A DNA stretch of 64,000 nucleotides from Candidatus Pampinifervens sinense (GCA_037927135.1 JAXSPP010000007.1:32001-96000), one strand, 5' to 3'. Positions 54,105 to 58,123 are shown, numbered from the stretch's first letter. Made by a program: numbers and translations. The notes: a model not told the origin generated them from the letters alone.

Positions 54105-54582
54105 GATCCTCCAAAGGGTAAAGGAGTTGGCAAAGGAGATAGAGGACTATTTTGCAGGCCCCTTTTTTGTGGTAAGCCTTCTAAAGGGTGCCTTTATCTT
54201 TACGGCGGACCTGATAAGAAGCTTTAGCATTCCTGTGCAGGTGGACTTTATATGGGTCTCCAGCTATGGCTCCTCTCAAGAGAGTCAAGGGCATGTAAAG
54301 GTGATAAAGGACCTAGATAGGGACATAGAGGGGCTAAGGGTTCTTTTGGTGGATGATATCTTAGACACGGGCTATACCCTTGAGGAGGTCTACAGGCTTC
54401 TCAAGCTAAAGGGTGCAAAGGAGGTAAAGACCTGCGTCCTTTTGGACAAAAAGGAGAGAAGAAGGGTGCCCTTTGAGGCGGACTTTGTAGGCTTTGAGGT
54501 GCCAAACCTTTTTCTTGTGGGCTATGGTCTAGATTGGGACGAAGAGGGCAGGAATCTGAGGGGCATATACGCAGTGCTTTAG
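54058..54582 (+). CDS. hpt: Hypoxanthine phosphoribosyltransferase
   Basis: LLKGAFIF.ADL, VSSYG, LLVDDILDTG.TL, VGYGLD; GTG start after GGAGG. Confidence 0.93.
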   Translation: MEIKGRPLKLLIPEDKILQRVKELAKEIEDYFAGPFFVVSLLKGAFIFTADLIRSFSIPVQVDFIWVSSYGSSQESQGHVKVIKDLDRDIEGLRVLLVDDILDTGYTLEEVYRLLKLKGAKEVKTCVLLDKKERRRVPFEADFVGFEVPNLFLVGYGLDWDEEGRNLRGIYAVL

Positions 54583-55163
54583 CCTATATCCTCTATGCTT
54601 ATGCCTACGGCACCAGCCCTAAGCATCTCCTCTATGGCCCTTTCCGAGTCTCCAGGGTTTACATCCACACCCTTTATACCATCAAGGAGGAGAAAGGCCT
54701 CATAGCCAAGGTTTATAGCACCAAGCACGGTGTTTTTCACACAGTAATCGGTGGCCACACCACCCACAAAGACTCTCCTTATACCCCTTTCCTTTAGAAG
54801 GCTGTCAAGAATGGTTCCTTGAAATCCAGAGTAGGCGTCAAAGTCTTTACTTGTGCCCTTTGATATAATAAAGCGGTTGTCCTGTGGTATAAAAAGGTCC
54901 TTATGGAACATGGCCCCTTCCGTGTTTTGAACGCAGTGAGGAGGCCACACACCCCCTTGCTCTTTGAAGGATATGTGGTCCGGTGGATGCCAATCCCTTG
55001 TAAAGAATACGGGAAGCCCTAAGGAGTTGAAAAGCTTTGTGTATTGGTTAAGCCTTGGTATTATCTTGTCTCCCTCTGGCACTGGAAGGGCTCCTCCCGG
55101 CATAAAATCCTTTTGCATATCCACCACTATAAGCGCATCCTTTGGGCCAAGCCTTATCTTCAT
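54579..55163 (-). CDS. pncA: Nicotinamidase/pyrazinamidase
   Basis: VDMQ.DF.PGGAL, DWHP..H.SF, WP.HCV, GVATDYCV. Confidence 0.92.
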   Translation of the reverse strand: MKIRLGPKDALIVVDMQKDFMPGGALPVPEGDKIIPRLNQYTKLFNSLGLPVFFTRDWHPPDHISFKEQGGVWPPHCVQNTEGAMFHKDLFIPQDNRFIISKGTSKDFDAYSGFQGTILDSLLKERGIRRVFVGGVATDYCVKNTVLGAINLGYEAFLLLDGIKGVDVNPGDSERAIEEMLRAGAVGISIEDIG

Positions 55164-55804
55164 GGCAAAACCTCCACAGGTATCTCATCTTTTAATTTAA
55201 TCTCTTCAAGGCTGACAGAACATCGGTAGGCCCTTGCCTCCAAGCCAAGCTTTACATACCTCAGAAGGGCTTCAGAAAACTTTGGATCCACACGCCAGTT
55301 GGGAGAGAAGGCTCTGCAGTCTTCCCTTTGGACCACAAAGACCACAAGAGGCTCATATCCTTCCATTGAAAGCTCAATAAGCTTTTCAATATGCCTTCTT
55401 CCCCTTTCTGTGGGTGCATCTGGAAAAAGGGCAATGCCATCCTCTACCAAGTTTACAGACTTTACCTCCACAGGCCTATGGCCTAAAAGCAGGTCAAACC
55501 TTTTATCACCAAAGGTAGGTTCAAAGGAGACTGGAACTTTTATATACTCTGCATAAAGCTTTGGAGCAATATGAGAATCAATGCAAACAAGGTAGTCTTT
55601 AAACTCTGCAAGGACTATTTCAAAGGAGTGTTTTCCTTCTTTCCTTTTTGCCACATAAACTTTATTGCCCTCAAATAGGAGCTCCTTTAGCCTTCCCGTA
55701 TTCCTTATGTAGGCTGTATAATCTTTGCCTTCAAACTCTATAAGCCCTACAAACCTGTTTAACCTTCTTTTGAACTTTGCTTCCTTTAGCTCTGGAAATC
55801 TCAT
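55160..55804 (-). CDS. sfsA: SfsA family DNA-binding/nuclease-like protein
   Basis: R.NRF, NTGRL.EL, VEVKSV.L, FPDAPT.RG.RH, FVVQR. Confidence 0.9.
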   Translation of the reverse strand: MRFPELKEAKFKRRLNRFVGLIEFEGKDYTAYIRNTGRLKELLFEGNKVYVAKRKEGKHSFEIVLAEFKDYLVCIDSHIAPKLYAEYIKVPVSFEPTFGDKRFDLLLGHRPVEVKSVNLVEDGIALFPDAPTERGRRHIEKLIELSMEGYEPLVVFVVQREDCRAFSPNWRVDPKFSEALLRYVKLGLEARAYRCSVSLEEIKLKDEIPVEVLP

Positions 55805-55809
55805 TTTTT

Positions 55810-55835
55810 AGAAAGGCCCCACCTGGCGGTGGGGC
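55810..55835 (-). terminator. GC-rich hairpin, probable intrinsic terminator/attenuator
   Basis: GCCCCACC-GCCA-GGTGGGGC followed by CTTTCT; A-run on the other side. Confidence 0.6.
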
Positions 55836-55896
55836 AAAACAGTTAGGGGAGGGAGGGGGAGGGAGTTTCTCACTTCCCCCAACTTCTCTATCTAAG
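55810..55896 (-). ncRNA. Candidate small RNA or structured leader with a C/U-rich loop
   Basis: 10-bp stem 55884-55875/55850-55841 enclosing CUCCCUCCCCCUCCC; promoter upstream, hairpin downstream. Confidence 0.5.
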
Positions 55897-55902
55897 TCTA
55901 AA

Positions 55903-55930
55903 ATTATATCCAATAATTTCCTTTTGTCAA
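55903..55930 (-). promoter_or_regulatory. Consensus sigma70 promoter TTGACA-N16-TATAAT
   Basis: TTGACA at 55930-55925, TATAAT at 55908-55903. Confidence 0.75.
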
Positions 55931-55941
55931 CTTGTAAAAAA

Positions 55942-56652
55942 TTAAAGTCTTTTCAAGGATGCATGCCACATAGCTATAGCTCCAGCAGAAGAAACGTTTA
56001 AAGAGTTTATCTTTCCCACCATCGGTATGGAGACCACAGCATCCGCTATTTCCAGAAGGCTCTTTGATACACCCTCTCCCTCCGATCCTAGCACAAGGGC
56101 ACAGCCTTGAGGAAAGTCAAACTCCCTTATATCCTTACCACCCCTTTCTATAGCTATGATCCAGCCACCCATCTCTTTAAATTCCTTCAAGGTCCTTGCC
56201 AGGCTACCCACCTTTGAAAGCATAAGGTAGAACACCGCACCAGAGGATGCTTTAACCACCGTTTCATTGATAGGACAGGCCCTATCCCTAGGTATTAAGG
56301 CACCTACACCACCAAAAACCTCGCAGGTCCTCAAAAGGTTTCCCACATTTTGAGGGTCTGTGATGTGGTCAAGGACTAGGAAAAAGGAACCGCTTTCCAA
56401 GGTCCTTTTAAAGAGTAGGTGAGGCTCCACATACTCTATGGGACTAAGGATAGCCAAAATGCCTTGAGTTTTCTTTGTGCCAGAAAGCTCCTCTATTTTT
56501 TGTCTTGGCACCTTTTGTATCTTAATACCCCTTTCTTTGCATAGCTTTACCACTTGATAAGGTGGATGGGAATCGTGTGCCACAAGCACCTTCTCTACAG
56601 ACCTTCCAGAACGTAAAGCTTCTATCACCGGATTCTTCCCATAAACTATCAT
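55942..56652 (-). CDS. rlmB: 23S rRNA Gm2251 methyltransferase (TrmH family)
   Basis: YG.NPV.EAL, QGI.A, DPQNVG...R, LGSEGEG, SLNVS.A. Confidence 0.9.
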   Translation of the reverse strand: MIVYGKNPVIEALRSGRSVEKVLVAHDSHPPYQVVKLCKERGIKIQKVPRQKIEELSGTKKTQGILAILSPIEYVEPHLLFKRTLESGSFFLVLDHITDPQNVGNLLRTCEVFGGVGALIPRDRACPINETVVKASSGAVFYLMLSKVGSLARTLKEFKEMGGWIIAIERGGKDIREFDFPQGCALVLGSEGEGVSKSLLEIADAVVSIPMVGKINSLNVSSAGAIAMWHASLKRL

Positions 56653-57698
56653 AGCTTTATTACACCACCTCCAAGCAATACATCATCCTCGTAAAAAGCG
56701 CATACCTGACCGGGAGTGATGCCCTTTATAGGCCTTTCAAACCTCACCACATATCCATCCTCTGTTCTTTCTACATCCTTTACCTCCACCATTTGACTCC
56801 TATACCTCACCTGCGCCTTTGGCCTCTCCCACAGGTTTATGTCAAGATGGAAGTTTATATCCTCAAGCAAAAGCCAATCTCTATAAAGCTCCTCCTCCCT
56901 GGAGAGATAAACTATGTTGTTCTCTGGGTCTATGGAATGCACATAGACGGGAAAGCCAAGGGCTATGCCCAGTCCCTTCCTCTGACCCACCGTGTAGTGG
57001 AAAAAGCCCCTGTGTTTACCCACAGGCCTTCCCTCAAAGTAAAAGTAGCCTTCCTTAGATCCTACCTTCTCTTCTATGAACTCCCCCGGCCCCCTTCCCA
57101 TAAGGAAGCACACATCCTGAGAATCCCTCTTGTCCCATACGGGAAGGCCCCTATCCCTTGCTATCTTCCTTACCTCCTCCTTTGTTAGACCTCCTAGGGG
57201 AAACTCTAAAAGGTCCAAATGCTCCCTCTTTACCAGGCTCAGAAAATAAGACTGGTCCCTTTTGAGGTCCATTGCCCTCCCTATAAGCCTCTCACCCTTA
57301 TACTCCACAAACCTAGCATAATGACCTGTGGCAAGCTTGTCTATGTTGGCCACTTTTCTGAGATAGTCTGCAAGGAAACCAGTCTTTACCTCTCTGTTGC
57401 ATATAGCACATGGGTTTGGGGTTTTTCCAGAAAGGGACTCCTTCAAAAAGTAATTTATGACCTTCTCCTCAAATACCTTCTCCCAGCTTAGTGTTATGTG
57501 GGGTATTCCAAGGTATTCTGAAACCCTTGCTGCATCCCTCACATCCTCTGGAGAACAGCAAACCCTAAGATCTTCTGTAGAACACTCAAGCTGGTGAAAC
57601 CTCAAGGTTACACCTATGACCTCATGTCCAGACTCCTTCATGAGGAGCGCGCAAACACTGCTATCTACACCACCACTCATACCTACAGCCACTCTCAT
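56649..57698 (-). CDS. mnmA: tRNA 2-thiouridylase
   Basis: MSGGVDSS, TPNPC..CN, ATGHYA, DQSYFL, DSQDVCF, YTVGQRKG, TPGQ. Confidence 0.96.
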   Translation of the reverse strand: MRVAVGMSGGVDSSVCALLMKESGHEVIGVTLRFHQLECSTEDLRVCCSPEDVRDAARVSEYLGIPHITLSWEKVFEEKVINYFLKESLSGKTPNPCAICNREVKTGFLADYLRKVANIDKLATGHYARFVEYKGERLIGRAMDLKRDQSYFLSLVKREHLDLLEFPLGGLTKEEVRKIARDRGLPVWDKRDSQDVCFLMGRGPGEFIEEKVGSKEGYFYFEGRPVGKHRGFFHYTVGQRKGLGIALGFPVYVHSIDPENNIVYLSREEELYRDWLLLEDINFHLDINLWERPKAQVRYRSQMVEVKDVERTEDGYVVRFERPIKGITPGQVCAFYEDDVLLGGGVIKL

Positions 57699-57709
57699 AA
57701 GGAAATAAT

Positions 57710-58123
57710 TTAGACCCCAAAGAACCTTTTCATAAAGCTTATAACTTCTGAGCTTTCCTCTTCCATCTCTAGCCCAAGCTTTATTATCCTATCTGGATTG
57801 TCCTTTTCCTTCAAAAGCCCAAGGCTTATGGCTGTTTGCAGCTTTTCTATAACACTTTCAGAAATATGTATCATAGTCTGATCAAAGCCAAACCTTTTAT
57901 ACAGTTCAAACCTCTCCCTCTCCCCCTTCTTCATCATACTCCTGCAAAAGGCGCATATCTTCCTCCAAGTGTTTAAGGTCCTCTCCCAATCATCCCTTGG
58001 AAGGTTTTCCAGCTCAAGCTTTATCAAGTCTATGAGTGAGCTCCTAAGATAGGCTTTAAAGCCTTCCGGCGTCCAGTTTTGATCATCCTCCTTTTTTAAA
58101 AGGCCAGTTAGATCAATTTTCAT
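57710..58123 (-). CDS. Hypothetical protein
   Basis: 137-aa ORF divergent from serA. Confidence 0.7.
   Translation of the reverse strand: MKIDLTGLLKKEDDQNWTPEGFKAYLRSSLIDLIKLELENLPRDDWERTLNTWRKICAFCRSMMKKGERERFELYKRFGFDQTMIHISESVIEKLQTAISLGLLKEKDNPDRIIKLGLEMEEESSEVISFMKRFFGV

Follow-up and report, generated by a model that had tools for sequence, protein, structure and literature searches.

Organisation of the locus

The element described here lies in a 64,000-nt stretch of Candidatus Pampinifervens sinense DNA (GCA_037927135.1 JAXSPP010000007.1:32001-96000), referred to below as the window. It is found on the minus strand between an rlmB-like gene and sfsA, the placement given in an initial annotation of this DNA and borne out by Pfam, which assigns SpoU_methylase to the upstream neighbour, and SfsA and then Isochorismatase to the two genes downstream (Table 1). 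A further gene, mnmA, identified by its Pfam MnmA domains, is located two genes upstream of the element, and upstream of this in turn is a 137-aa ORF at 57710-58123 (-), for which Pfam yields nothing at E ≤ 0.001.

Table 1. Positions of the sRNA element, its parts and its neighbours in the window, and of the two homologous copies in genome G001
Feature	Position	Strand	Basis or remark
-35 box, TTGACA	55925..55930	-	Half of the 12/12 sigma-70 promoter match; TTGACA kept in most relatives
-10 box, TATAAT	55903..55908	-	16-nt spacer from TTGACA
Predicted sRNA, ~87-88 nt	55810..55897	-	Ends placed from promoter geometry and tail
5′ arm AGUUGGGGGA (G-run) of genus-specific stem	55875..55884	-	Predicted fold; RNAalifold
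C/U tract CUCCCUCCCCCUCCCUCCCCU, 21 nt, three CCUCC units; proposed seed	55845..55865	-	Near-invariance, predicted accessibility
3′ arm UCCCCUAACU of genus-specific stem; overlaps tract end	55841..55850	-	Predicted fold; RNAalifold
Terminator hairpin GCCCCACC-GCCA-GGUGGGGC, 8-bp GC	55816..55835	-	Covariation
Terminator tail CUUUCU, short interrupted U tract	55810..55815	-	Conserved as CUUUCU or CUUUUU
sfsA	55160..55804	-	Pfam PF03749, PF17746; ATG at 55804
Isochorismatase-family (pncA-like) gene	54579..55163	-	Pfam PF00857; overlaps sfsA end
SpoU-type rRNA methyltransferase (rlmB-like) gene, upstream neighbour	55942..56652	-	Pfam SpoU_methylase; stop at 55942
G001 copy 1	G001:C1:989742-989818	+	Inside n68 interval
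G001 copy 2	G001:C1:1168989-1169066	-	Inside n75 interval

The consensus promoter on the minus strand that had been noted at the outset matches at 12 of 12 positions, and is the sole such match among the four promoter-like sites in 54500-57500, a region for which shuffled sequences yield 3.4 ± 1.7 sites of at least 9/12. Some 30 variable bases lie between TATAAT and the G-run. The start of the transcript is predicted at ~55896-55899, 6–8 nt past the -10 box, with the end of the CUUUCU tail serving as its 3′ end. Following the C/U tract is the short sequence UAACUGUUUU, after which comes the terminator hairpin. As originally described, the hairpin and its tail end just ahead of an sfsA start codon without a Shine–Dalgarno sequence: five A residues separate the tail from the ATG, there is no Shine–Dalgarno at normal spacing, and no separate promoter occurs between tail and ATG. 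On the opposite strand, which is the template for the sRNA, the complement of the tract (55845-55865 (+)) reads AGGGGAGGGAGGGGGAGGGAG; with its four G-runs and 1-nt loops, this is a canonical G-quadruplex motif. The element is present as a single copy in its own genome.

Predicted fold and accessibility of the tract

Folding of the 96-nt segment 55900-55805 returns a minimum energy of -39.8 kcal/mol (z = -3.78), a value that none of 200 shuffled sequences equalled. The stem proposed in the initial annotation is recovered in this fold, but the GAG-AAA-CUC mini-hairpin drawn inside it is not, as GAG pairs instead with a more distal CUC. RNAalifold analysis of 18 same-genus sequences pairs 55875-55884 with 55841-55850, and this stem (AGUUAGGG/CCCUAAUU) closes a 28-nt loop containing most of the tract. 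It is limited to the genus of the window and displays one-sided changes only, such that the terminator is the only conserved helix of the RNA.

With regard to accessibility, predictions for the 87-nt RNA (those at high temperature using extrapolated energy parameters) hold the terminator arms paired throughout 37–85 °C, with P(unpaired) ≤ 0.02, and give the first 13 nt of the tract a P(unpaired) of 0.72–0.75 across the same range. For the last 8 nt the predicted value rises with temperature, from 0.15 to 0.49; the tract mean is 52–63 % unpaired, and approximately half of the tract is predicted to be open to sequestration by the 5′ stem in this genus.

Conservation across the phylum

When 90 genomes belonging to the same family were searched by blastn with the 151-nt region, all 12 genera gave matches. 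Core identity in most of these is 82–97 %, compared with only 53–78 % for the adjoining SfsA protein in other genera. Alignment of 33 distinct cores reveals a nearly invariant tract, loop and tail, and the core UCCCCCUCCCUCC is retained in three families, within a C/U run of 18–22 nt. Terminator aside, nothing else is common to the whole family.

The covariation in relatives that the initial annotation had suggested as a check is confined to the terminator hairpin, and does not extend to the 5′ stem. Across the 33 sequences the hairpin is 100 % paired, with compensatory changes in six of its eight pairs and a covariation score reached by 0 of 500 shuffles. In a larger alignment of 45 sequences, which was fitted to the covariance model and so favours structure, compensatory changes are seen in 8/8 pairs.

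Two covariance models were used to search 151 sampled Aquificota genomes. The first, R1, built on sequences of family f1 only, has matches in 105 of these at E ≤ 0.01; its weaker matches in f2 display the same architecture on inspection. The second, R2, built on 45 sequences from three families, has matches in 142 of the 151 at E ≤ 0.001, comprising 69/72 genomes of f1, 44/44 of f2, 25/25 of f4, 3/8 of f3, where they are at noise level, and 0/1 of f5. The noise level of R2 is approximately 22 bits (E ~5 × 10−4). A second R2 match in the genome of the window (22.3 bits) does not show the combined architecture of tract and terminator and resembles ordinary coding-type sequence, and was therefore rejected as a copy; due to this, R2 hits near E = 10−4 to 10−3, including all three from f3, are counted as noise. 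By comparison, nine f4 hits that were inspected (39–45 bits) all possess the tract, the hairpin and the U tail. Predicted transcript lengths differ by family, at 74–112 nt for f1, ~70 nt for f4 (one locus, L076) and 55–60 nt for f2. In the last of these the -10 box ends 4–8 nt before the tract, and the predicted RNA consists of the tract, a short linker and the terminator.

Beyond these genomes, a scan of genome contigs for an 18-mer of the tract found at least 119 stretches. Among the 80 loci listed, nine match R1 at 43 bits or more, and all nine have Aquificota-type titles; the record titles of full matches among those listed are Aquifex sp., Aquificaceae bacterium, Hydrogenothermus sp. and Candidatus Pampinifervens. 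Six others among the matches listed have E ≤ 0.01 at no more than 22 bits and look like chance tracts, and the remaining 65 of the 80 have no R1 match. In viral contigs, 15 loci harbour the 18-mer, none with the terminator architecture. One of these contigs (L264 201-218) contains an identical tract of 21 bases, located in CT-rich low-complexity sequence with no hairpin or terminator, and this was judged a chance occurrence.

Two further observations concern individual assemblies. Drafts often break exactly at the element (G084:C17:1-77, the end of G086:C12, G088:C76:1-51, G022:C173:1-33, G013:C196:1-30 and G007:C115:1-55), which fits either a two-copy repeat or a stretch that is hard to sequence or assemble. 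In addition, two genomes of the same genus (G047 and G048) contain weak 88-nt matches of ~23–25 bits, at L078 1529-1616 (+) and L079 1529-1616 (-), which begin with the same GAGAAACUCC motif, but whose tract is degraded and rich in U and whose hairpin is longer. These may represent a decayed paralogue, of which no counterpart was found in the genome of the window.

Polarity and genomic neighbours

Several features distinguish the two strands of the element. The terminator hairpin contains five G–U/U–G pairs and no A–C on the C-rich strand, and the helix therefore suits this strand as RNA, and not its complement. On the C-rich strand, 44 of 54 loci have a sigma-70-type promoter of at least 10/12 within 110 nt upstream, versus 1 of 54 on the opposite strand, in a count that leaves out four short-flank loci and rows with identical upstream sequence.

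Downstream, sfsA is the next gene at 27 loci out of a first set of 30 and at 3 of 13 further loci, amounting to five genera in all; in the genome of the window and four other genera the terminator ends 5–6 nt ahead of the sfsA start codon. The rlmB neighbour is not conserved, as it recurs in only two of 29 loci from relatives, both of genus g6, where it is convergent. In an Aquifex-type genus there are two copies, upstream of a permease and a metallophosphoesterase gene, respectively, and a further genus has an ABC ATPase gene after the element; these co-oriented genes start 5–27 nt past the tail. Three settings face a convergent gene, namely tmk in genus g3, rlmB in g6 and a DNA ligase gene at the second copy in G008. 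In family f2 the element is flanked by FixO-like and rhomboid genes, or by recA and a topoisomerase gene. At L076 (genome G141, family f4) it is immediately upstream of mnmA, and the presence of mnmA nearby in the window as well is probably a coincidence. The n68-type copy of G001 directly follows a DDE transposase gene (L037 1170-2132 (+)), a neighbour that might relate to duplication of the sRNA in the Aquifex-type genus.

As promoter, tract and terminator are kept whilst the surroundings change, the element behaves as a gene rather than as a leader. It is an independent sRNA gene, equipped with a promoter and a terminator of its own, and not the leader of sfsA.

Homology to published Aquifex aeolicus transcripts

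The window element scores 97.4 bits with R1, and two loci in genome G001 score 78.2 and 74.2 bits. Comparison with published Aquificales ncRNA candidates, as suggested in the initial annotation, proved informative, in that both G001 copies coincide with transcripts reported from A. aeolicus. The first, n68 (the ‘Aae-65’ of Willkomm 2005), spans 989704-989840 on the plus strand with 476/756 cDNA reads (Lechner 2014, Table 3, PMC4227106), and the second, n75, spans 1168974-1169071 on the minus strand with 158/79 reads and was tested by Northern blot (PMC4227106). Sense and antisense signals for n75 were similarly strong, and its polarity was left open (Lechner 2014, PMC4227106). Of 11 genomes, only 4/2 and 3/3 were reported to contain regions homologous to n68 and n75, respectively, with no family or function given (PMC4227106), and the two loci were listed as overlapping the annotated genes aq_1392 and aq_1666 (PMC4227106, Table 3).

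The start of G001 copy 1 predicted by the promoter rule, 989703, adjoins the published 5′ boundary of n68 at 989704, and the permease gene that follows this copy matches the annotation of Lechner 2014. Given that coordinates, strands and permease agree, G001 is taken to be the A. aeolicus genome or one collinear with it, and, as its copies coincide with n68 and n75, homologues of the window element are expressed. Both share with it the C/U tract, the GC hairpin and the CUUUCU tail. Published as two separate candidates, they appear here as paralogues of one family with matches in 142 of 151 genomes, and the polarity of n75, open in Lechner 2014, is set to the C-rich strand by the promoter and G–U evidence. 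In four hot-spring metatranscriptome runs, no reads matched 55500-56200 at 88 % likeness, which is a blank and not evidence on expression.

The central claim of the initial annotation, that the locus encodes a discrete sRNA displaying an exposed C/U stretch, is thus strongly supported by a dedicated promoter that is itself conserved, a covarying terminator, phylum-wide conservation in varying gene contexts and homology to n68 and n75, and we are highly confident that the element is a real sRNA gene of an Aquificota C-tract family.

Proposed function

CCUCC, present three times in the tract, is the core of the 16S anti-Shine–Dalgarno sequence, and the 16S rRNA of the same genome ends in ...GGAUCACCUCCUUU. 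The exact 16S heptamer CACCUCC is also present in the second of the Aquifex-type copies, and several f2 copies carry it at their 5′ end. Duplex energies calculated for 80 °C with extrapolated parameters separate the two RNAs by type of site: with a GGGAGGG-type site, the sRNA tract forms a duplex of -8.1 to -9.5 kcal/mol versus -3.2 to -3.3 kcal/mol for the 16S tail, whilst with the canonical AAGGAGGUGAU site the values are -3.4 and -6.0 kcal/mol, respectively. On these figures, the sRNA would out-compete ribosomes only at G-flanked sites.

The overall explanation that we consider best, and to which we assign about an even chance of being correct, is a free-standing, phylum-wide sRNA that pairs in trans with G-rich sites, at a locus that also feeds sfsA-pncA by read-through. 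A strong sigma-70-type promoter would yield a transcript of ~88 nt, composed of the 5′ stem peculiar to this genus, the 21-nt tract, most of it unpaired, and the terminator, with the GC hairpin and its short U-containing tail ending transcription of the sRNA. The tract would pair in trans with G-rich sequences, chiefly G-flanked Shine–Dalgarno sites of mRNAs, and this pairing would block ribosome access to the mRNA. That the sRNA acts through G-rich ribosome-binding sites is suggested by its anatomy and by analogy with other C-rich sRNAs, and we rate it marginally below an even prospect.

Read-through of the imperfect terminator from the sRNA promoter would also supply sfsA-pncA mRNA. The CUUUCU terminator is probably leaky, judging by its short interrupted U tract, and since the U tract is poor, the ATG is only 5 nt away, and neither a promoter nor a normally spaced Shine–Dalgarno intervenes, read-through probably supplies sfsA-pncA; our estimate that it feeds sfsA is evenly balanced. 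With regard to temperature, the unusually long, G–C-rich pairing surface suits growth at 70–90 °C, and may be what stable pairing demands in the heat.

Searches for trans targets were made at several levels. A genome-wide RNAduplex scan of both strands, in 40-nt windows with at least 12 G and using crude gene calls, revealed no standout trans site; its best duplex, at -40.8 kcal/mol compared with -65 kcal/mol for perfect antisense, is antisense to a gene. Scans of start regions at 37 and 80 °C found 96 windows at ≤ -8 kcal/mol versus 26 among internal coding windows, an enrichment that is biased because the choice of start codon favoured G-rich upstream sequence. The ranking of start-region targets was rejected, as Pfam shows many of the top 20 ‘starts’ to be internal. 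Also rejected was a cinA/pncC-like candidate, whose site is internal to coding sequence, with coding sequence upstream of it in 30 relatives.

An extended form of the same proposal, which we regard as doubtful, holds that the RNA is a phylum-wide triplicate mimic of the anti-Shine–Dalgarno sequence, abundant and constitutive, which would compete with the 30S subunit at G-flanked sites and so set a global threshold for translation in hyperthermophiles. Its G–C pairing surface of 18–22 nt would have evolved as short seeds melt at 80–95 °C, and the locus would double as promoter and leader of sfsA-pncA in five genera.

Alternative explanations

An unlikely alternative, though the one that survives best, is that the RNA titrates a protein that binds C-rich single strands (Rho, a KH or cold-shock-domain protein, or Hfq), in the manner of sponges such as CsrB or 6S. 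Rho primary sites bind YC dinucleotides, and the tract consists of repeated UCCC-type units whose primary sequence is kept in three families, but 21 nt is short for a Rho loading site. Rho is encoded in the same genome, as are two Hfq homologues above the Pfam cut-off (G000:C1:68852-69040 (-) and G000:C2:213233-213409 (-), with frames of 81 and 76 aa). A. aeolicus Hfq is reported not to have bound C6 RNA, and CsrA was not found in this genome and binds GGA in any case. The near-consensus promoter suggests high, constitutive expression, which is in keeping with a sponge, and the lack of a standout RNA target in the duplex scans also sits well with one. Against this, no genome links the gene to a candidate protein, and the recurrence of the exact 16S heptamer in two lineages points to RNA pairing.

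A cis-acting 5′ leader of sfsA-pncA (an attenuator, riboswitch or thermosensor), with the short RNA as a by-product of premature termination, is very unlikely as the primary role of the element. An attenuator or riboswitch was the alternative offered in the initial annotation, and a leader role draws on the close spacing of terminator and sfsA ATG, on the predominance of sfsA downstream in the first set of loci, and on the co-oriented genes that begin a few nucleotides past the tail in other genera. It fares poorly once the phylum is considered, as the downstream gene varies by genus and is convergent or absent in several. There is, moreover, no conserved sensing structure, the 5′ stem being genus-specific with changes on one side only, and no Rfam riboswitch match; the f2 RNA, which is tract and terminator only, begins at the tract and hence leaves no room for an aptamer.

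It is extremely unlikely that the partner of the tract is a stable structural RNA (an rRNA precursor, tRNA or other sRNA) rather than mRNA. Invariance of the tract over three families does suggest an equally invariant partner, but the best sense-strand duplex with the rRNA operon, -27.6 kcal/mol, is within the bulk of the G-rich windows scored (top 5 % ≤ -27.6), and the two duplex hits in tRNA regions lie antisense to the tRNA genes. Finally, that there is no RNA gene at all, and that the locus is a DNA-level element (a G-quadruplex, i-motif or protein site) or the terminator of rlmB, has a negligible chance of being correct despite the textbook G-quadruplex motif GGGGAGGGAGGGGGAGGG on the plus strand and the many draft assemblies that break at the locus, as the promoter sits between the rlmB stop and the hairpin and is kept where rlmB is not a neighbour, the G–U pairs suit only the C-rich strand as RNA, and the A. 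aeolicus homologues are transcribed.

Significance

The free-standing sRNA gene favoured here brings two hitherto orphan A. aeolicus transcripts together in a single well-defined family, with a covariance model, a polarity, predicted ends and a minimal form of 55–60 nt. Whilst n68 and n75 had already been detected in one species, what is new is their grouping as a family, together with its breadth, its polarity and the mechanism proposed; in the literature searched a single paper names Aae-65, and searches using the tract motif and keywords returned nothing further of relevance. No regulatory sRNA of the deep-branching, hyperthermophilic Aquificota is known to have an assigned function, and the family offers a handle on RNA–RNA regulation at 80–95 °C. 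It also bears on whether mimicry of the anti-Shine–Dalgarno sequence is an ancient, recurrent solution, and could enter Rfam and genome annotation.

Comparison with known systems

A search of Rfam 15 gave no match in the window at the gathering threshold, including any to a housekeeping RNA, the outcome that the initial annotation had named as telling against an sRNA; at E ≤ 10 in 55600-56100 only unrelated families appear, with scores far below their gathering scores. The RsaE/RoxS model likewise has no match in the window at the gathering threshold, nor at E ≤ 10 in 55600-56100.

RoxS/RsaE of the Firmicutes is a terminator-ended sRNA, widely conserved in its phylum, with unpaired C-rich motifs complementary to G-rich Shine–Dalgarno regions. 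The Aquificota RNA is similar in being small and terminator-ended, in its C-rich motif and in its phylum-wide conservation, but has no homology to it in sequence or structure. Whereas RsaE carries several short CCCC motifs in hairpin loops, the Aquificota RNA has one continuous tract of 18–22 nt, and whereas expression of RsaE is regulated, the promoter here looks constitutive, with no operator seen. In CcsR1–4, the ‘cuckoo’ RNAs of Rhodobacter and relatives, and in RepG of Helicobacter pylori, unpaired motifs that are C/U-rich or of CCUCCUCCC type pair with G-rich sites. Their motifs are displayed in hairpin or terminator loops, the CcsR RNAs being tandem hairpins that follow a small protein gene and RepG targeting one G-repeat; the Aquificota tract, in contrast, precedes the terminator, and in f2 the RNA starts with it.

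A third point of reference is provided by rnTrpL and the riboswitch-derived SreA/SreB, trans-acting sRNAs that arise from leaders by premature termination and are tied to one operon, with a sensing structure. The likeness here is that one promoter may yield both a short RNA and, by read-through, an sfsA-pncA mRNA; the Aquificota RNA differs in that its sequence is preserved whichever gene lies downstream. Without being homologous to any of these, the Aquificota RNA, if it acts as proposed, most resembles in function the sRNAs with C-rich seeds, namely RoxS/RsaE, the CcsR/cuckoo RNAs and RepG.
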